DNA from: Escherichia coli
GTDB taxonomy: Bacteria > Pseudomonadota > Gammaproteobacteria > Enterobacterales > Enterobacteriaceae
Length of the DNA: 64,000 nucleotides
Reading direction: 5' to 3' (one strand)
Assembly (NCBI RefSeq): GCF_044324875.1
Contig: NZ_CP172185.1
Each line of letters starts with the position of its first letter. The first letter of the stretch is position 1. Made by a program: the position numbers and the translations under genes. Below, piece after piece: positions 2,638 through 63,968 of this stretch. Below the pieces are notes generated by a model. It saw only the letters and a list, made by a program, of their open reading frames with translations, had not been told where the DNA came from and searched no databases.

Positions 2638-4104
2638 TTAAATTTTGAGGGTGTTTAATAGCGCCTGATGCGCGCCGAATTGTGCGATTTGTTGCCAGGC
2701 TTGTTCGATGGTCTGCACAAAATGCGGGTTATCTGGCAGATCATCACCGAAAACTTCACGCAGGGAAAGCAGGGCGGTGACGCGTTGTTCACTGCTGCTG
2801 CCCGCAACAAGTTCGCGAATTTTATCGCTAAGCGGATCGCGAACATCAATGGCATTTCCGGCATCATCAACGCCGCTGACGTAACGCATCCAGCCTGCAA
2901 CGCCTAATGCCAGCATCGACCAGTCCGTTTCGCGCCCCAGATGTATGCGAATACCTGCCAGCATGCGTTGCGGTAATTTCTGGCTACCATCCATTGCGAT
3001 TTGCCAGGTCTTATGTTTCAGCGCCGGATTAGCAAAACGTGCAATTAACTTATCCGCATATTGTGTTAAATCGACATCTTTAATTCGCAGTGTTGGCGCT
3101 TGCTCATCCAGCATTAATGTTCTGGCGGCATGGCGAAATGCGCGATCCTGCATGCAATCACTGATATGGGCGAATCCTGAGAGGTAACCCAGATAAGCGA
3201 GAAAAGAGTGGCTGCCATTAAGCATACGCAGTTTCATCTCTTCCCATGGCAGGACATCATTCACCATTTGTACACCTGCGACTTCCCAGGCAGGACGCCC
3301 AGCGACGAAGTTATCTTCCACCACCCACTGGATAAACGGTTCGCAGCTAATCGCGCAGGGATCATTCACCCCCAGATGCTGGCTGATTTCCGCTAGTGAT
3401 TCGTCGGTTGCAGCCGGAACAATGCGGTCGACCATAGTTCCCGGAAAACTGACGTGTTCTTTTATCCACCCGGCGAGTTCTGGCGAACGTTTTTCTGCCA
3501 TTCCCAGCACCGCGTTTTTCACCACATGGCCATTGTCGGGAATATTGTCGCAGGAGAGCACGGTAAACGGTGTAAGGCCGCGCTCACGGCGGCGTTTCAG
3601 TGCTTCGACGAGAATTCCCGGTGCGGAGTGAGGTTCTTCAGGATTTTGAAGATCGTGAATAATCCGCGGATTGCTGGTGTCGAGTGCACCGGTGGCTGGG
3701 TCAATACAATAGCCTTTTTCGGTAATCGTCAGGGAAACAATTGCCACCTGTGGCTCGCAAAATTTCTCAATAATTGCCGCTAAGGAATCCAGTTTTGCAT
3801 TCAGGCATTCGTGAACGGCACCGACAATTATCGCCTGATTGCCGTCCGCACCTTTCTCCAGCACGGTATATAAATGGTTCTGTGCGCGGAGCTGGCTCAT
3901 CAGTTGATCGCCGCTGAACAAGCTGATCTCACAGATTCCCCAGTCGCCGCCCTGGGCATTCAGCACACGATCGGTCAGTAACGCCTGATGTGCGCGGTGA
4001 AAGGCTCCGAAGCCAAAATGAACGATACGTGATTGCAACTGCTGGCGATCGTAGCGTGGAGCGTGTACATGATGCGGGAGCGTAGCGGAGGCGATTGTAT
4101 TCAT
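2638..4104 (-). CDS. yeiQ: Mannitol dehydrogenase-family oxidoreductase
   Basis: Track ORF 491 aa; start moved to MNTIASA (488 aa); long-chain mannitol DH-like sequence. Confidence 0.8.
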   Translation of the reverse strand: MNTIASATLPHHVHAPRYDRQQLQSRIVHFGFGAFHRAHQALLTDRVLNAQGGDWGICEISLFSGDQLMSQLRAQNHLYTVLEKGADGNQAIIVGAVHECLNAKLDSLAAIIEKFCEPQVAIVSLTITEKGYCIDPATGALDTSNPRIIHDLQNPEEPHSAPGILVEALKRRRERGLTPFTVLSCDNIPDNGHVVKNAVLGMAEKRSPELAGWIKEHVSFPGTMVDRIVPAATDESLAEISQHLGVNDPCAISCEPFIQWVVEDNFVAGRPAWEVAGVQMVNDVLPWEEMKLRMLNGSHSFLAYLGYLSGFAHISDCMQDRAFRHAARTLMLDEQAPTLRIKDVDLTQYADKLIARFANPALKHKTWQIAMDGSQKLPQRMLAGIRIHLGRETDWSMLALGVAGWMRYVSGVDDAGNAIDVRDPLSDKIRELVAGSSSEQRVTALLSLREVFGDDLPDNPHFVQTIEQAWQQIAQFGAHQALLNTLKI

Positions 4105-58353: not shown

Positions 58354-58449
58354 TCAGTAATTCATTAAAAATTTATATTCAATCAGCGCACCGAAAACGA
58401 CGGACGCCAGCAGCAGACCAAACAGCATGGACAGGAGGAATGACTTCAT
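58354..58449 (-). CDS. Candidate small hydrophobic protein (31 aa)
   Basis: MKSFLLSMLFGLLLASVVFGALIEYKFLMNY; ATGA start/stop overlap with the upstream 74-aa gene; not in ORF track. Confidence 0.3.
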   Translation of the reverse strand: MKSFLLSMLFGLLLASVVFGALIEYKFLMNY

Positions 58450-58670
58450 CGCTTTGCCTCCCGCTGTACGATTTTGTAGGCGCGCAGGATGTCGCGTGTT
58501 TTTCCTGACAACGATGACTTAACCCAGAAAAAGCCGCTGCGGTTTTCATAGATCCCCTGTACATTAAACAGCACCGCATCAACAACGCGGTTATGCTTTT
58601 GCAATGTCAGGCAGGAACTGGTGATCACGATGTTCGCTACGGCGCCATAGTCCTTGTATTGGATTTTCAT
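58446..58670 (-). CDS. Hypothetical phage protein (74 aa)
   Basis: Track ORF; start abuts the stop of the 112-aa gene. Confidence 0.5.
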   Translation of the reverse strand: MKIQYKDYGAVANIVITSSCLTLQKHNRVVDAVLFNVQGIYENRSGFFWVKSSLSGKTRDILRAYKIVQREAKR

Positions 58671-59009
58671 TTACATGTTCCCCATAACGGTATCGCTCAT
58701 GTCGTTAACCATGCTCTGCCAGATTTCTTTGCCGCTTTGCGTCAGCTCGTTTCCACGAACGCATTTGCTTAACAGCTGAATACCAACGGCTTCCCATTGG
58801 GGGTAATTTTCTTTGATAGCCTTCAGAGCATAACCATCGATTAAATCCCTGATACCTTTAACCCCACCGATGATGTTTACTCGTATGGATTGCCCATTGA
58901 CATTAATCATGAAATGATCTCCGTTGGTGGCGGATATGTGGTTGTGCAGTGCAGCCGCATACTGATTTGCCAGCGCATTGAGGCGGAAATTTTGTGTAAT
59001 GAGTGGCAT
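58671..59009 (-). CDS. Hypothetical phage protein (112 aa)
   Basis: Track ORF; TAATG overlap with the upstream ORF6N gene. Confidence 0.5.
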   Translation of the reverse strand: MPLITQNFRLNALANQYAAALHNHISATNGDHFMINVNGQSIRVNIIGGVKGIRDLIDGYALKAIKENYPQWEAVGIQLLSKCVRGNELTQSGKEIWQSMVNDMSDTVMGNM

Positions 59010-59755
59010 TATTTACCCTCCCAACCAATCACCTGAAACAGCCCCATTTTCGGGTGATACCAGCGGGTACCGCGTGGCTCTGCCTCTGACATCATCTGAT
59101 GAAATGCTTTCATGAACGGCTCAAGCTCCACGATAGCCCGGCGAGAAAGAAGACCATCTGGCGTCATAAATTCGTGCGTATCGGTTGGGATGCTGTAGGC
59201 ATTGACCAGATTGCGGCACTTGGCATCAGTCATTCCGCTTTTGGCGACCACCTGGCGATAACCGACATATCCGGCGCGCATATTTCCGCGTTTGATGTTC
59301 TCCACAGCTTTGGTGACCGTTTCGATCTTCTCTTCAACATGACTCAGGCGCTTCTGCTGGCGAACGGCATCGGCGGCCATTGCAGCGATCATCTCCATTT
59401 CCGTCAGCGGCGCGTGAGTTCGGAAATAGCTGTTAACCAGTTCGCGCTGAACCTGCCATGCAAGAGTATCGTTAAAAGGCTTCGTCAACATCAGGTAACC
59501 AGACTCGAAAAGAATGATCCCTTTGGCAGTTCGCGCGGCAAAGGCATCAGAAAGTGACTCCGTACGTATTACGTCCGCAGTCATTTCAAGAAAATCCACC
59601 CCTTCGATAAAGTGAGAACGGTTGCGGTTAAACGCAGCACGGGCGGTACCTTCCGGGCGCTGGTGGACGTCATCAATCATTGCAAATGTCACAACACGCT
59701 GACCGCGATATTCGATTACCGGAAACTGTTTGTTGTTGATGGTTACAGTATTCAT
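59009..59755 (-). CDS. ORF6N/KilA-N domain protein (antirepressor-like)
   Basis: Start at MNTVTINNKQFPVIEYRGQRVVTF..IDDVHQRPEGTA (SD ggag 7 nt upstream); N-terminal pattern typical of ORF6N/KilA-N DNA-binding domain. Confidence 0.6.
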   Translation of the reverse strand: MNTVTINNKQFPVIEYRGQRVVTFAMIDDVHQRPEGTARAAFNRNRSHFIEGVDFLEMTADVIRTESLSDAFAARTAKGIILFESGYLMLTKPFNDTLAWQVQRELVNSYFRTHAPLTEMEMIAAMAADAVRQQKRLSHVEEKIETVTKAVENIKRGNMRAGYVGYRQVVAKSGMTDAKCRNLVNAYSIPTDTHEFMTPDGLLSRRAIVELEPFMKAFHQMMSEAEPRGTRWYHPKMGLFQVIGWEGK

Positions 59756-59798
59756 TTTTATCTCCAGACAGCCCGGCGTGTAATACCGGGCATATGTA

Positions 59799-60626
59799 TT
59801 ACTTAACCTGAATAAATGGTGTGTTGGCACCGCTGGTCATGTATTGCGGCAGTGTACCGTTCCACTTGTTGATGGCTTCCAGCTCCATAACGTTTGGGTT
59901 CTGGCGCAGAGCTTCACCGCGTAAACGAATAGCATCGGCTTCGGCCTGGGCTTTTGTGCGAATCGCATCTGCCTGTCCGGCAGCTTCCGCGCGCAACATG
60001 TTGGCTTCCGCTTCGCGCTGTTTTACTTCCTGCTCGCGTTGCAGGGTTTTCTGGTTGGCCGTGACTTTGGCATTAATGCTGTCGATAACAGTAGGCGGGT
60101 ACTCCGGCTTACCCACATATGAGAGGCTCATTACCTGAATACCGATGGGCGTCATTTCTTCCTGAATGTCTTTAAGAGCTGCATCCAGCAGCTCAGACTT
60201 GCCGCCGTCGATAAATTTGTCGGTGGTCATTTTGCTGGCCAGTCGGTTGAGTGCGTCGGCTATCTTCTGGCGCAGGTCGGTGTCGGTAATGTCGTCCACG
60301 CCTTTGCGGTAGGTCTGAAAGACTGTGGTAACTTTGGATGGATCAACTTTGTAGGCCACGCCGATGTGATAGCCGATGGTTGTACCGTCACTCATCTGGA
60401 AACTGAATGGATCATCGTAGGTCTTCATCTGCTTAAAGGTCGGGAAGATGTAAACCTCAGTGTTCCATCCCGTCCAGTAGCGCCCAACACCGACCACTTC
60501 ACCGACGCCTTTATCGTCGCCCAGTTTGTTTACTTTGATGCCCACATTACCAGGCTCAACGCGATCGCAACCGACAAGGCCAATGGTCGGCAGAACAATG
60601 GCTAAAGCAAAAAGTAATTTTTTCAT
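59799..60626 (-). CDS. SPFH/band-7 (prohibitin/HflKC-like) lipoprotein
   Basis: 275 aa; signal peptide with lipobox LVGC; SPFH-type core and C-terminal coiled-coil QREQEVKQREAEANMLRAEAAGQADAIRTKAQAEADAIR. Confidence 0.7.
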   Translation of the reverse strand: MKKLLFALAIVLPTIGLVGCDRVEPGNVGIKVNKLGDDKGVGEVVGVGRYWTGWNTEVYIFPTFKQMKTYDDPFSFQMSDGTTIGYHIGVAYKVDPSKVTTVFQTYRKGVDDITDTDLRQKIADALNRLASKMTTDKFIDGGKSELLDAALKDIQEEMTPIGIQVMSLSYVGKPEYPPTVIDSINAKVTANQKTLQREQEVKQREAEANMLRAEAAGQADAIRTKAQAEADAIRLRGEALRQNPNVMELEAINKWNGTLPQYMTSGANTPFIQVK

Positions 60627-60811
60627 CTTTTATCCTTAGAAAAAGAAAGACCCTTATAAATGGCATAAATGCAGGGCGGGGTCAGACACGCCAGAGCAAA
60701 GCCAGAAATCACTGCTATCGTATCCTTCATGGATATAAGGAACGGAACGAGTAATCCGTAAATGCATGCGATAATTGCCAGTAAAATTACTATTGTGAAA
60801 TACAGTCTCAT
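60623..60811 (-). CDS. Small two-TM membrane protein coupled to the SPFH gene
   Basis: 62 aa MRLYFTIVILLAIIACIYGLLVPFLISMKDTIAVISGFALACL...; 4-nt start/stop overlap with the SPFH gene. Confidence 0.55.
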   Translation of the reverse strand: MRLYFTIVILLAIIACIYGLLVPFLISMKDTIAVISGFALACLTPPCIYAIYKGLSFSKDKR

Positions 60812-60987
60812 TGGTCTGTGGTATCCCGATATTTTTAACCGACTGACAGCGCAATAAAGAGAATAATGATTTCTGTTAGTGTCAGCACTGTGGCAAGGAT
60901 TAAAATCAGTTTTACTCTGTTTAATTCACGGTTGCTTTTCATATAAACGGTTAGTAAAAAACGGAAGAATTATTTTCTTCTTAATAT

Positions 60988-61569
60988 TTAATGTGTCACT
61001 GGCGCTTCTGGCATACCATGAGTATTCAGGTCGTGAATCATTTCATCCAGAAGGAGTTCAAGCCCTTCGCGCCCCATAGCAGAGAGAATGAAACCATTAT
61101 CAGGATCTGCGATGAGCATTTTTTGATAGAGAAACAGAACTCGCCCCATGCCTTCAGTTTCGCCATATTTTTCAATAAATCCCCATTCGACATGGTTTTG
61201 CAGGGCAATGCGAAGTGGTCCTGGGTATATACTTATGCAACCATGTTTCCCCTTGTAAATAACTGCGCGATCTGTCGTCCCGTTATCGTTAGGGATATCA
61301 ATAGTGCCGTTCTTGTCTTCCTCTTCACTGATAAACTTCATCACATACAGCCAGCGCCACTGAGCAACCTTCAGATCGACTGAAAATCTTCCCAGCAATC
61401 CGGCATCATCAGCTTCGGCAAGACATTGCATGATTCTTAAACCGTGCCAGTATGGATTATCGAATTCGCCATCATTAAGCCGCTGTACGGCCTGAATATA
61501 ATTAATGGTTGTATTACCAATTTTTATGCCATGTGGCGTTACTTCTGGTCGGAACTCTGAATGATTCAT
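60988..61569 (-). CDS. Hypothetical phage protein (193 aa from MNHSEF; track ORF extends to 61626)
   Basis: ATGA overlap with the upstream 67-aa gene if it starts at 61569. Confidence 0.5.
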   Translation of the reverse strand: MNHSEFRPEVTPHGIKIGNTTINYIQAVQRLNDGEFDNPYWHGLRIMQCLAEADDAGLLGRFSVDLKVAQWRWLYVMKFISEEEDKNGTIDIPNDNGTTDRAVIYKGKHGCISIYPGPLRIALQNHVEWGFIEKYGETEGMGRVLFLYQKMLIADPDNGFILSAMGREGLELLLDEMIHDLNTHGMPEAPVTH

Positions 61570-61769
61570 AATATTTGCTCCTTTGCTGGTGGAATAATCG
61601 TGTAGCCAGCTCTTTTTGCCATCCACAGAAATGTATCCATGCAGCCAACGAATTCATTATCCAGCAGATGTTTTGAGTAAATTACTTCACCATTTTCAAT
61701 GGTTAGCAACACTCTTACTTTTTTATGTGTTATGTTTTGTTGTTTTTCTTCCATTGACTTATCTCCCAT
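61566..61769 (-). CDS. Hypothetical phage protein (67 aa)
   Basis: Track ORF; alternative start MEEKQQ at 61754. Confidence 0.45.
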   Translation of the reverse strand: MGDKSMEEKQQNITHKKVRVLLTIENGEVIYSKHLLDNEFVGCMDTFLWMAKRAGYTIIPPAKEQIL

Positions 61770-61950
61770 ATGCTTTGCGCAAATACAGGTTGGCTATATG
61801 AAGATAAGAATCTCCATGTTGTGCAATGAGGCAGGCAGTTTTATACGATGCCTTATGTTTCAGGAAAGTCATAACATAATCTCCTGCGAATAAAGGTTGC
61901 AACAATCCCCGGCGATAAAACCGTAATAAACATTCAGGGAATATTTATTG

Positions 61951-62316
61951 TTATTGCGCTAATTCTTTTTCGGCAGCAGATTTTGCATATTCACATGCAA
62001 AATTCAGAATTTCGCTGCCAAGTGTTTTTGTTTCGTGATTACTGGACATATGTAATACCTGTGTTGCATGCAATAAATGATAAACATTTACCGCAAATGA
62101 GTCCGGCTCCAGACAAATGCCTTCATAATCATCTTGTTGTGAGGTTGTTTCTGTCATTGCTCCTGAAGTGCATGCGAGCCTGTTTTTGACAATTCTCTTT
62201 CCTCTAATCACTATATCGGCAACATCTATTGCCTTTACAACCTCCGGGAGAAGTTCCGGGTTTGTATAATCAAAGTCATCAACATGGAGAACAGTTATGT
62301 TTTCGAACTTTTTCAT
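61951..62316 (-). CDS. Hypothetical phage protein (121 aa)
   Basis: Track ORF with SD gaggaag upstream. Confidence 0.5.
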   Translation of the reverse strand: MKKFENITVLHVDDFDYTNPELLPEVVKAIDVADIVIRGKRIVKNRLACTSGAMTETTSQQDDYEGICLEPDSFAVNVYHLLHATQVLHMSSNHETKTLGSEILNFACEYAKSAAEKELAQ

Positions 62317-62444
62317 GGCTTCCTCAGCTGACTTATATGTTCTGCTATATAGCGAGTCTCAGAAGTGTTTTCATATTGAGACTGTTTCCGCAATGATTGA
62401 TAAAAATGTTCGCATGTACCTTGAGGGGCGAAGCGGCGATTATG

Positions 62445-62903
62445 TCACCATTGGTATTGGTTCTTCCGTAGAAGAGCTTCGCGAGATAAGGAGCAAACTT
62501 GTTGAGATGCGTCATGGTGTTGCTGCTCCTCACTTTTTGGTTGCTCCGGAGGAGTAACCTCGCCAGTTAACAGCCACATCGGATCACAGCCAAGAACATT
62601 AGCCAGAGGGATAATCTGGCTTGCCAGAGGCTCCCTCTTGCCACTTTCCCACTGGATGATAATTTCTTCATCGAGATTGAGCAGCCTGGCGAGTTCGGCG
62701 GTTGTTAAGCCGCAGGCTTCGCGTTGGGTGTCAATAGAGCGATATTTTTTGTTTCCAGAAGGTAACAGAACACGTTTTATCTGTTGGATTTTTTCTATTG
62801 CAACTTCAATGAGTATGTTGCGGTTTCTTTCTGATGCAGACTCCATGCTTTCATGAAGTAGTGATTCTGCTTGTTCGATAAGAATCAGTTGTAAAGAAGA
62901 CAT
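62445..62903 (-). CDS. HTH (XRE/Cro-type) domain protein immediately downstream of cI
   Basis: 152 aa; central segment LTTAELARLLNLDEEIIIQWESGKREPLASQIIPLANVLGCDPMWLLTG is a typical XRE helix-turn-helix; SD gagg. Confidence 0.6.
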   Translation of the reverse strand: MSSLQLILIEQAESLLHESMESASERNRNILIEVAIEKIQQIKRVLLPSGNKKYRSIDTQREACGLTTAELARLLNLDEEIIIQWESGKREPLASQIIPLANVLGCDPMWLLTGEVTPPEQPKSEEQQHHDASQQVCSLSREALLRKNQYQW

Positions 62904-62911
62904 AAGAAAAC

Positions 62912-62946
62912 CTCGTAACCAACATTTCGAAATCTAGGTTACGAGT
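62912..62946. promoter_or_regulatory. Palindrome between cI and the downstream HTH gene; candidate operator or terminator
   Basis: ctcgtaacc-N17-ggttacgag (9-bp arms); spacer contains gaaatctaggtt, which recurs in the cI-cro intergenic region. Confidence 0.4.
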
Positions 62947-63648: not shown

Positions 63649-63661
63649 CTTTTCTCTCCGT

Positions 63662-63746
63662 TGTCGAAATGATTTTTTCGAAACAAATATATCAAAAAAT
63701 ATTGAAATCTAGGTTTCGCAAAACTAAGATTGTTCGAAACAAACGT
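63662..63746. promoter_or_regulatory. Divergent cI/cro promoter-operator region with repeated TTCGAAAC-type sites
   Basis: tgtcgaaat, ttttcgaaacaaa, gaaatctaggtttcgcaaaac, tgttcgaaacaaacg between the divergent starts. Confidence 0.5.
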
Positions 63747-63758
63747 GTCGAGGTCGAT

Positions 63759-63968
63759 ATGGATTTGTATGAAATTCTAAAAAACATATTTGGTTCGAAT
63801 GTTGAGATCGGTCGCCATTTTCCCCGAAAGGGAAGGGCTAGAACTGGACAGGCTGTAGGAAAGTGGAAAAAACAAGGGGTACCGGAGGATGTAGCGATTC
63901 TTTGCCATCTGGATCCCGCAATTCCTTATCAGCATCCGCCTCTCACGAACGGTAGTAATGGCGTATGA
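63759..63968 (+). CDS. cro: Cro-like small DNA-binding regulator
   Basis: 69 aa MDLYEILKNIFGSNVEIGRHFPRKGRARTGQAVGKWKK...; divergent from cI, SD gagg; start chosen at internal ATG of a longer track ORF. Confidence 0.55.
   Translation: MDLYEILKNIFGSNVEIGRHFPRKGRARTGQAVGKWKKQGVPEDVAILCHLDPAIPYQHPPLTNGSNGV

Follow-up and report, generated by a model that had tools for sequence, protein, structure and literature searches.

Genes L06, L07 and L08 of a phiP27-like Escherichia coli prophage: probable early-left genes next to a separate SPFH module

Introduction

Do three small genes that lie between an SPFH module and the immunity region of an Escherichia coli prophage belong with that module, as cargo, or with the early genes of the phage itself? 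The question is raised by a stretch of 64,000 nucleotides (contig NZ_CP172185.1 of assembly GCF_044324875.1), called the window below, which from 55.6 kb onward holds the left arm of a phiP27-like lambdoid prophage of E. coli adjoining mlrA (yehV). An initial annotation had listed three open reading frames (ORFs) of 193, 67 and 121 amino acids (aa) there and had joined them with the SPFH pair into one block of possible cargo of about 2.5 kb. The three ORFs are real, at the minus-strand coordinates first given for them, as seen from the ORF list, from matches to PHROG families (E 1e-24 to 1e-90) and from the ratio of non-synonymous to synonymous substitution rates (dN/dS). They are very probably genuine repressor-proximal early-left genes of the prophage and independent of the SPFH module, and the picture of a single cargo block is not supported: the two sets of genes occur independently and in differing order, and the third-position GC content (GC3) of the three ORFs is like that of cI and L10.

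Identity of the genes

The proteins of the three ORFs are 97-100% identical to L06, L07 and L08 of phage phiP27, and the 193-, 67- and 121-aa ORFs are these genes. At the DNA level the stretch is 97.8% identical to phiP27 over 1.8 kb, and 99.5% identical to the yecE prophage of E. coli LH50-c. In phiP27 the genes (P27p06-08) are likewise ordered and oriented, with the lipoprotein/SPFH gene L05 on one side and the helix-turn-helix (HTH) gene L10 on the other. The two prophages differ in their position (mlrA for the window prophage, yecE for phiP27) and in the integrase arm, and the window has extra genes (ORF6N, o112 and o74) and another L10 N-terminal domain and cI. In the phiP27 record L06 is started at an upstream GTG.

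As sequences the genes are already known; they have been hypothetical proteins since the phiP27 genome record and are catalogued in PHROGs. The earlier remark that they have no recognisable motifs is correct for Pfam (even at E <= 10), NCBIfam and PADLOC and wrong in so far as the proteins belong to catalogued PHROG families; the PDB gave no match for any of the three. Their description as proteins of unknown function stands: no characterised homologue was found, so homology gives no assignment to ordinary early functions, and a literature search on DUF5406, the phiP27 locus tags and the early genes of phiP27 brought up no work on function. New, and minor, are a 37-codon gene called o37, an antisense gene called L09, a helical hairpin that occurs both free and fused, the structurally unmatched L06, and the independence of these genes from SPFH.

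Position in the early-left operon

The genes and sites on which the placement depends are listed here from the repressor side. Related loci used for comparison carry three-digit numbers (L002 to L018), which are not to be confused with the gene names.

62912..62945, no strand assigned: operator-like palindrome with 17-nt arms, CTCGTAACCAACATTTC / GAAATCTAGGTTACGAG, in the 85 nt that separate the cI stop from the L10 start
62445..62903, minus strand: L10, 152-aa XRE/HTH regulator, first gene of the presumed early-left operon
61951..62316, minus strand: L08, 121 aa, phrog_5451, with an N-terminal domain at about residues 9-45, a linker at 50-64 and a C-terminal hairpin at 74-120
61759..61872, minus strand: o37, 37 aa, MTFLKHKASYKTACLIAQHGDSYLHIANLYLRKAYGR, taking up most of a 181-bp 'gap'
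61566..61769, minus strand: L07, 67 aa as read, phrog_340, small alpha/beta domain, its stop overlapping the L06 start (ATGA)
60988..61569, minus strand: L06, 193 aa, phrog_1515, acidic, soluble alpha/beta protein whose conserved C-terminal tail ends in P-V-x-H
60956..60980, minus strand: weak AT-rich hairpin GAAGAA/UUCUUC and U6, immediately downstream of the L06 stop

The order cI, L10, L08 (or a hairpin protein of 63-88 aa), o37, L07, L06 on one strand is found in phiP27, LH50-c, PhiR49_2, the Stx1 and Stx2 phages and L016, and the overall layout is the same in L011, whose L06 is only about 34% identical. Purifying selection acts on all four genes L06, L07, o37 and L08, with dN/dS of 0.30-0.36 for L06 to L08. 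The reference for these values, and for those of o37 and mic35 below, is L016, a diverged relative with 72-84% DNA identity.

The spacer between cI and L10 (62904-62988) has direct repeats, D1 and D2, that share 20-23 nt (75-83%) with positions 63696-63720 in the cI-cro intergenic region. A motif, GAAATCTAGGTT, is common to the palindrome region and the cI-cro intergenic region (63649-63760), and a TTGACA -35 hexamer stands just upstream of the palindrome when read on the minus strand. The spacer with the palindrome is presumed to be the oL/pL that drives the operon.

Further down, a promoter and terminator scan of the minus-strand spacers between the operon genes gave no promoter-like and no GC-rich terminator-like site, and the RNA folding of the spacers was no better than that of shuffled sequences. 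The initial annotation had suggested that the 180-bp gap ahead of L07 might hold an internal promoter. Most of that gap is taken up by the conserved gene o37, and in the 78-nt spacer left after o37 neither a promoter-like site on the coding strand nor unusual RNA structure was found. The junctions are tight, with good ribosome sites, 4 nt between o37 and L07, and the ATGA overlap between L07 and L06, which had been noted before and is seen both in the ORF list and in the sequence. L06, L07 and L08 have no signal peptide or membrane character, and the isoelectric point (pI) is about 5 for L06 and L08.

After L06 stands the weak hairpin (-4.3 kcal/mol, z -1.3), which is conserved in relatives; L016 too has a hairpin and a T-run, with a loop of its own. 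The hairpin may serve as a leaky terminator at the end of the promoter-proximal unit. The scan of the window gave a promoter-like match at 60999-60972. The same stretch in phiP27 and Stx2_112808 reads GTGACA...TATAAT, and this could be a promoter for the SPFH unit.

What was found is thus what would be expected of a pL operon: co-orientation with cI, a shared operator motif, tight junctions, and neither an internal promoter nor a strong terminator. Because of the synteny, the composition and the operator-like palindrome upstream of the HTH gene, L10-L08-o37-L07-L06 is placed at the promoter-proximal end of a cI-controlled early-left operon, an assignment that, taken together with the independence from SPFH, is held with good confidence.

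The same niche is known from other phages. Lambda (cIII, kil, ral, the ea genes and the exo-xis ORFs) and P22 (abc, arf, ea) carry non-essential accessory genes in their pL operons, and like L06 to L08 these are small, mosaic, co-oriented, exchangeable and repressor-controlled, and lie between the immunity region and xis/int. They differ in that no sequence or fold likeness to L06-L08 was found in profile libraries and fold searches, and the window phage has the HTH gene L10 where lambda has N, and is without Red recombination genes in this arm.

Independence from the SPFH module

The other part of the supposed cargo block, with its relatives' replacement, is made up as follows.

59799..60811, minus strand: m62 and SPFH module, with the membrane protein m62 at 60623-60811 and the SPFH lipoprotein at 59799-60626; GC-richer and separate
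60835..60942, minus strand: mic35, 35-aa hydrophobic micro-ORF with one predicted membrane helix
L014 3813-4966, L015 3811-4964, L018 7773-8927: alternative cassette in the L06 slot of sister prophages

The SPFH unit ends in a strong hairpin at about 59770-59791 (-14.4 kcal/mol, z -2.6), and the promoter-like GTGACA...(T/A)ATAAT ahead of it overlaps the L06 stop. A comparison of GC content with the neighbouring genes had been proposed as a check. L06, L07, o37 and L08 have GC3 values of 0.41, 0.32, 0.37 and 0.31, matching the phage genes cI (0.37) and L10 (0.42) and not SPFH (0.59); ORF6N is at 0.56.

The two units also part company in relatives. L06-L08 are found without SPFH in PhiR49_2 and the Stx1 phages, and m62 and SPFH without L06, o37 and L08 in L014, L015 and L018. 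In these last three the alternative cassette fills the place, encoding proteins of phrog_1737 (119 aa), of an L07-like type (71 aa), of phrog_1525 (72 aa; named 'ParE family toxin-like' by the Prokaryotic Genome Annotation Pipeline, PGAP) and of phrog_1886 (130 aa). A swap hotspot thus lies where the L10/hairpin genes give way to SPFH. In L017 and in Klebsiella phage P18-100 the SPFH gene is on the other side of L06, that is upstream of it. Judged from such comparisons, the SPFH unit is a mobile, moron-like and separable module whose position relative to L06 varies among prophages. L06-L08 themselves neither travel with SPFH nor show the own promoter and distinct composition of a moron.

The micro-ORF mic35, which the initial annotation had pointed out, is present with exactly the sequence quoted there. 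It is open at the same length in phiP27, LH50-c, Stx2_112808 and L016, with frame and hydrophobic core kept, and compared with L016 it has 22 differences (4/7/11 by codon position, dN/dS 0.36, 80% DNA identity). It has no Shine-Dalgarno site and is unannotated in the phiP27 record. It occurs only where L06 directly abuts m62, and is absent from L003, L005, L014, L015, L017 and L018. That mic35 is a real gene is plausible but unproven.

L08 and the helical hairpin of L10-type regulators

L08 matches PHROG 5451 over its whole length (E 3.5e-83, residues 1-121 on profile positions 1-121 of 121). Its dN/dS is 0.36 overall, 0.50 for the N-terminal half and 0.29 for the C-terminal half. PGAP calls only the C-terminal 68 aa in LH50-c. 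The first methionine has a GAGGA ribosome site, and the N-terminal 50 residues are retained in 17 full-length homologues and also in protein P0088 despite its different C-terminal half. Because of this retention we take the 121-aa form as real, and an additional internal start is possible. The AlphaFold2 model (pLDDT 74.5 overall, about 90 in the hairpin) has a small beta/alpha N-terminal domain and a disordered linker. The N-terminal domain (beta, alpha, beta-hairpin, about 45 residues) may resemble a half-barrel of the AbrB/MazE type, although no profile supports this.

The hairpin is the part that ties L08 to regulators. Residues of about 64-120 are similar to the N-terminal domain of the L10-type regulator of LH50-c (BLASTP, 45% identity over 47 residues, E 4e-10) and also to those of L003 and L004, and the hairpin is homologous to regulator N-terminal domains in LH50-c, PhiR49_2, Stx2_112808 and L011. 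It is likewise homologous to free-standing hairpin proteins of 63-88 aa encoded just downstream of L10 (L011, L014). With hhalign the L011 regulator is matched at E 8e-6, and free hairpins at 8e-8 and 6e-6. Free and fused forms are also seen in a second hairpin type, unrelated to the first, which is free in L014 and L017 and fused to the HTH in L015.

L10 itself has HTH family matches, with a DicA-like match at 1e-10. Its HTH core is 62-89% identical across phages of differing immunity, and the N-terminal domains are swapped among at least four types. The N-terminal helical domain of the window's L10 is of a type found only in the window.

A likeness of the L08 hairpin to the small proteins encoded upstream of L06 homologues in satellites was also considered and was rejected as unproven, with hhalign giving no detectable homology.

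L07 and the 37-codon gene o37

L07 matches PHROG 340 with an E-value of 3.8e-24, and its dN/dS is 0.30. The start more probably lies at the sixth codon, ATG 61754, giving 62 aa: this codon has a GGGAG site, the first ATG has no ribosome site, PGAP starts the gene at the sixth codon, and the N-termini differ among homologues. A further match of the L07 domain is to the C-terminal part of phrog_4792, an anti-repressor family (E 0.004 for the window's protein, 7e-6 for the L014 variant), whose N-terminal part matches the window's own ORF6N protein. In L011 the L07 domain is fused to a phrog_1886 protein.

Between L08 and L07 the initial annotation had left the gap in which o37 is found, a real conserved gene as judged from its sequence and its relatives. 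It has an AGGAG site 7 nt upstream of its start, and it is kept in all six of the L06-bearing loci examined (70-100% aa identity). The L005 copy differs at 26 nucleotides, falling 7/3/16 by codon position, with 13 synonymous and 7 non-synonymous changed codons, and dN/dS is 0.13. The gene is annotated in PhiR49_2 and Stx1_14040 and called in L016, and in protein P0104 it is fused in frame to L07. It is unannotated in the phiP27 record and PGAP makes no call for it in LH50-c. Its last codons form the L07 ribosome site, and its stop comes 4 nt before the L07 ATG at 61754.

The C-terminal motif LRKAYGR of o37 is also seen in a 40-aa ORF of L017, where it stands ahead of a different gene.

L06, a folded family without structural relatives

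The mechanical ORF of L06 reaches back to a GTG at 61626, and the ATG at 61569 has an AAGGAG Shine-Dalgarno site. The protein matches the PHROG 1515 profile with an E-value of 1.5e-90 (residues 1-193 on positions 12-203 of 203), and its dN/dS is 0.34. It has no match in Pfam (even at E <= 10), NCBIfam, PADLOC or the PDB sequences, a Pfam scan of 55 diverse members of the family gave no match, and the family profiles found no significant match among PDB sequences. A profile search of 1.84 billion cluster representatives gave 132 relatives, nearly all single-domain proteins of 190-220 aa, and the family comprises about 130 clusters at 50% identity. Relatives with organism names in the AFDB list are all from Enterobacterales, and L06 is present in 36 phage records.

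The AlphaFold model is a confident alpha/beta structure (pLDDT 88.9, pTM 0.83), and a fold search of PDB, AFDB50 and BFVD gave no match outside the protein's own family of Enterobacterales prophages and satellites. Nuclease, kinase, protease or membrane features were not found in profile and fold searches or in the sequence properties. Across the wide family D37, R72, W73, R120, E128, Y148, G166 and the terminal His are near-invariant. The family tail, G-x-P-x-x-P-V-x-H, is of low confidence in the model and its final His is nearly invariant; it looks like a short docking motif.

It is worth noting that the V-T codons of this tail, within 60988-61011, double as the GTGACA hexamer of the promoter-like site.

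L06 stands directly upstream of an ORF6N gene in L011 and L017 and probably also in Klebsiella P18-100, and in the window the inserted mic35-m62-SPFH unit comes between the two genes. In integrase-AlpA-primase islands, which are P4-like or resemble phage-inducible chromosomal islands (PICI-like), L06 homologues are found amid small helical proteins just upstream of the primase-helicase gene. L06 and L07-like genes occur together in about 32 of the 36 phage records; the two are parted by other genes in L017 and the Klebsiella phages (P18-100).

Proposed role

Genes L10 to L06 would be silent in the lysogen and among the first to be made after induction or infection. L06, L07, o37 and L08 would be cytoplasmic, mostly acidic small proteins that bind partners in the early regulatory circuit, and a tentative suggestion, made with low confidence, is that they act as small protein-binding modulators of early regulation. 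The free hairpin copy in L08 may pair with an L10-type regulator or compete for the partner of the regulator's hairpin, and so would tune the regulator's activity. Free copies of regulator domains that act in a dominant-negative manner are known from the eukaryotic Id proteins, which work against bHLH factors, and from small phage anti-repressors. The C-terminal domain of L08 is in the same way a stand-alone paralogue of the L10-type N-terminal hairpin, encoded one or two genes downstream of the regulator gene; the differences are that the resident L10 has another N-terminal domain and that L08 has an extra beta/alpha domain at its N-terminus.

For the other three genes, o37, L07 and L06 would be translated as a coupled unit, whose partners may be anti-repressors of the ORF6N type, or which may serve in cross-talk among co-resident elements. 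L07 is fused elsewhere to ORF6N/KilA-N anti-repressor-type proteins and L06 is found near an anti-repressor or primase gene, which suggests derepression or cross-talk and not lysogenic conversion. With the ORF6N/KilA-N 'anti-repressors' (PHROGs 1726 and 4792, PF10543) these genes have in common the match of L07 to the C-terminal part of phrog_4792 and the frequent position of L06 directly upstream of ORF6N. They differ in that neither L07 nor L06 has the ORF6N domain, and the anti-repressor label in PHROGs is itself mostly annotation.

Several points weigh against this account. No homologue with a tested function was found, and the mechanism comes from domain paralogy and gene neighbourhood only. 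The window's own L10 N-terminal domain has no similarity to L08 by BLASTP or hhalign; it is of a different type, so that nothing here implies that hairpins pair directly in the case of the resident L10, and the free type-1 hairpin is present whatever the type of the L10 N-terminal domain. The match between L07 and phrog_4792 covers only about 41-49 residues, and for the protein of the window it is weak (E 0.004). The phages in which L06 and L07 occur together are mutually related, and the counts are not independent. The neighbours of L06 vary. The -10 hexamer of pL is poor and pL was not called by the promoter scan, and the promoter, operator and terminator assignments were all read from the sequence alone.

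Alternative explanations

Almost equally tenable, if still doubtful, is the view that L06 and L07, and perhaps L08, are host-takeover or anti-defence effectors that inhibit a host protein or a defence of the host or of a prophage. Ral, Gam, Abc2, Kil and cIII from the early-left regions of lambda and P22 are the model for such a role. The genes lie in the first-expressed part of the early-left operon and encode small, acidic, soluble proteins, in a mosaic hotspot where alternative cassettes replace one another. Homologues of L06 are common to lambdoid prophages and to P4-like or PICI-like islands of differing lifestyle, as is typical of counter-defence genes, and the absence of a structural match outside its family means that L06 shows no regulator-like DNA-binding fold. 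However, L08 has a paralogue in a regulator domain and L07 in an anti-repressor domain, which points to regulation, no target can be named, and the general libraries, none of them aimed at anti-defence, gave no likeness to known anti-defence or takeover proteins. A related idea, that the prophage has here a defence, abortive-infection or toxin-antitoxin pair with L07 as the antitoxin-like partner and L06 as the larger effector, which would shield the lysogen from other phages, is weaker and improbable. It would fit two overlapping genes, a small one followed by a larger one, and the 'ParE family toxin-like' protein (PGAP) encoded by the alternative cassette at this site; prophage early-left regions also hold exclusion genes, for example sieB and rex in P22 and lambda. 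Yet PADLOC-DB 2.0 has no match for L06, L07, L08, mic35, m62 or SPFH, and the HTH of L10 matches generic HTH models only. The promoter scan detected no promoter of the pair's own, no toxin-antitoxin domain or toxin-like fold was found, and L06 is without nuclease, kinase, protease or membrane features. Toxin-antitoxin genes are moreover not usually parted, as these two are in L017 and Klebsiella P18-100.

The same comparisons leave little room for lysogenic-conversion cargo, in which the three ORFs and the SPFH pair would together be one moron block, expressed in the lysogen to the advantage of the host. This weaker reading has in its favour that the region is variable among related prophages, that functions are unassigned, and that the adjoining SPFH unit is moron-like, with its higher GC3, its 3' hairpin and a promoter-like site upstream. 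It is hard to reconcile with the independent occurrence of L06-L08 and SPFH in differing relative orders, with a composition that groups L06-L08 with cI and L10 and not with SPFH, with co-orientation and coupling to the repressor-proximal operon, and with homologues in the early operons of satellites; nor is there a promoter-like site ahead of L08 or o37. A further possibility, again a slight one, concerns translation and not function: mic35, o37 and the N-terminal half of L08 might be untranslated, their conservation coming from regulatory DNA or RNA. PGAP makes no calls for any of the three in LH50-c. The L07 ribosome site is formed by the 3' end of o37, and mic35, which has no ribosome site, overlaps the conserved hairpin and promoter-like stretch, its DNA being more conserved than the flanks in close relatives. 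Against this, o37 has its dN/dS of 0.13, its 13 synonymous versus 7 non-synonymous codons, its AGGAG site and the in-frame P0104 fusion; the N-terminal half of L08 has a GAGGA site, is kept in P0088 and belongs to a protein that is full length in 17 homologues; and mic35 keeps frame, length and hydrophobic core at 80% DNA identity. Rfam has no match in the region.

Wider significance

A more far-reaching idea, which is rather unlikely as it stands, is that L06, L07 and the free hairpins represent a class of early proteins, so far unrecognised, in the mobile elements of Enterobacterales (lambdoid prophages and P4-like or PICI-like satellites), centred on the structurally unmatched L06 with its conserved C-terminal P-V-x-H tail as a docking motif, and acting either through trans-acting 'decoy domain' control of XRE and ORF6N regulators or as a new counter-defence factor. 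Were such a class to exist, a decoy-domain system would control derepression and the cross-talk between co-resident elements. Hairpins that are fused to the first early regulator and also free downstream of it suggest trans-acting modulation in phages without a gene of the lambda N type. L06, a confidently folded family that is absent from Pfam and common to prophages and satellites, may be of interest to phage biologists.

Prophage and host context

The host genes of the flank, yehW, yehX, yehY, osmF and mlrA, identify an E. coli with a lambdoid prophage beside mlrA/yehV. The phiP27-like type is common in E. coli and includes Stx-converting phages. The two prophages from which the window's arrangement may derive are found together in one strain, LH50-c. 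Its mlrA prophage (NZ_CP100500.1: 2001750-2008940, L018) is 98.9% identical to the window from int through SPFH, and its yecE prophage (NZ_CP100500.1: 2343911-2345761, L002) is 99.5% identical over L06-L08. With a junction just upstream of m62, the left arm in the window looks like the product of recombination between these two prophage types. An Rfam scan of 55-64 kb gave no match.

On the other strand, between L10 and L08, lies one more gene.

62297..62557, plus strand: L09, 80-86 aa, phrog_6104, antisense to the operon between L10 and L08

L09 overlaps the 3' end of L10 by 113 nt and also covers the start codon of L08. Its dN/dS is 0.076 outside the overlap with L10, and within the overlap it is 0.25 in the L09 frame versus 0.70 in the L10 frame, which makes L09 the more constrained of the two. 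A GGAG site precedes its ATG (62297), and PGAP does not call L09 in LH50-c. L09 is probably a real, oppositely transcribed gene, and it is possibly expressed in the lysogen.

Further to the left, the 273-aa ORF that starts from a GTG (59009-59830, minus strand) is more likely a 248-aa ORF6N/KilA-N 'anti-repressor' gene that starts at the ATG at 59755. This ATG has a GGAG site, the PHROG and homologue alignments begin there, and with this start there is therefore no overlap with the SPFH gene. Beyond it, the stretch 58446-59009 (minus strand) holds a 112-aa gene (o112, phrog_37628, 58671-59009) and a neighbouring 74-aa gene (phrog_1001). The two also neighbour the L06 homologue in a satellite-like island (L006, 6652-7220), and in the Serratia protein P0128 an L06 homologue is joined by read-through to a homologue of the 112-aa ORF (58671-59009). 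In the window they are parted from L06 by the SPFH and ORF6N genes. An identification of o112 as DUF5406 was rejected, there being no Pfam match, although a DUF5406 gene fills that slot in relatives. Finally, the early operon of the related prophage L017 encodes at 2746-3333 a 195-aa protein with tandem GNAWVFG/GDAWVSG repeats, which we take to be reminiscent of bactofilin or hexapeptide repeats.

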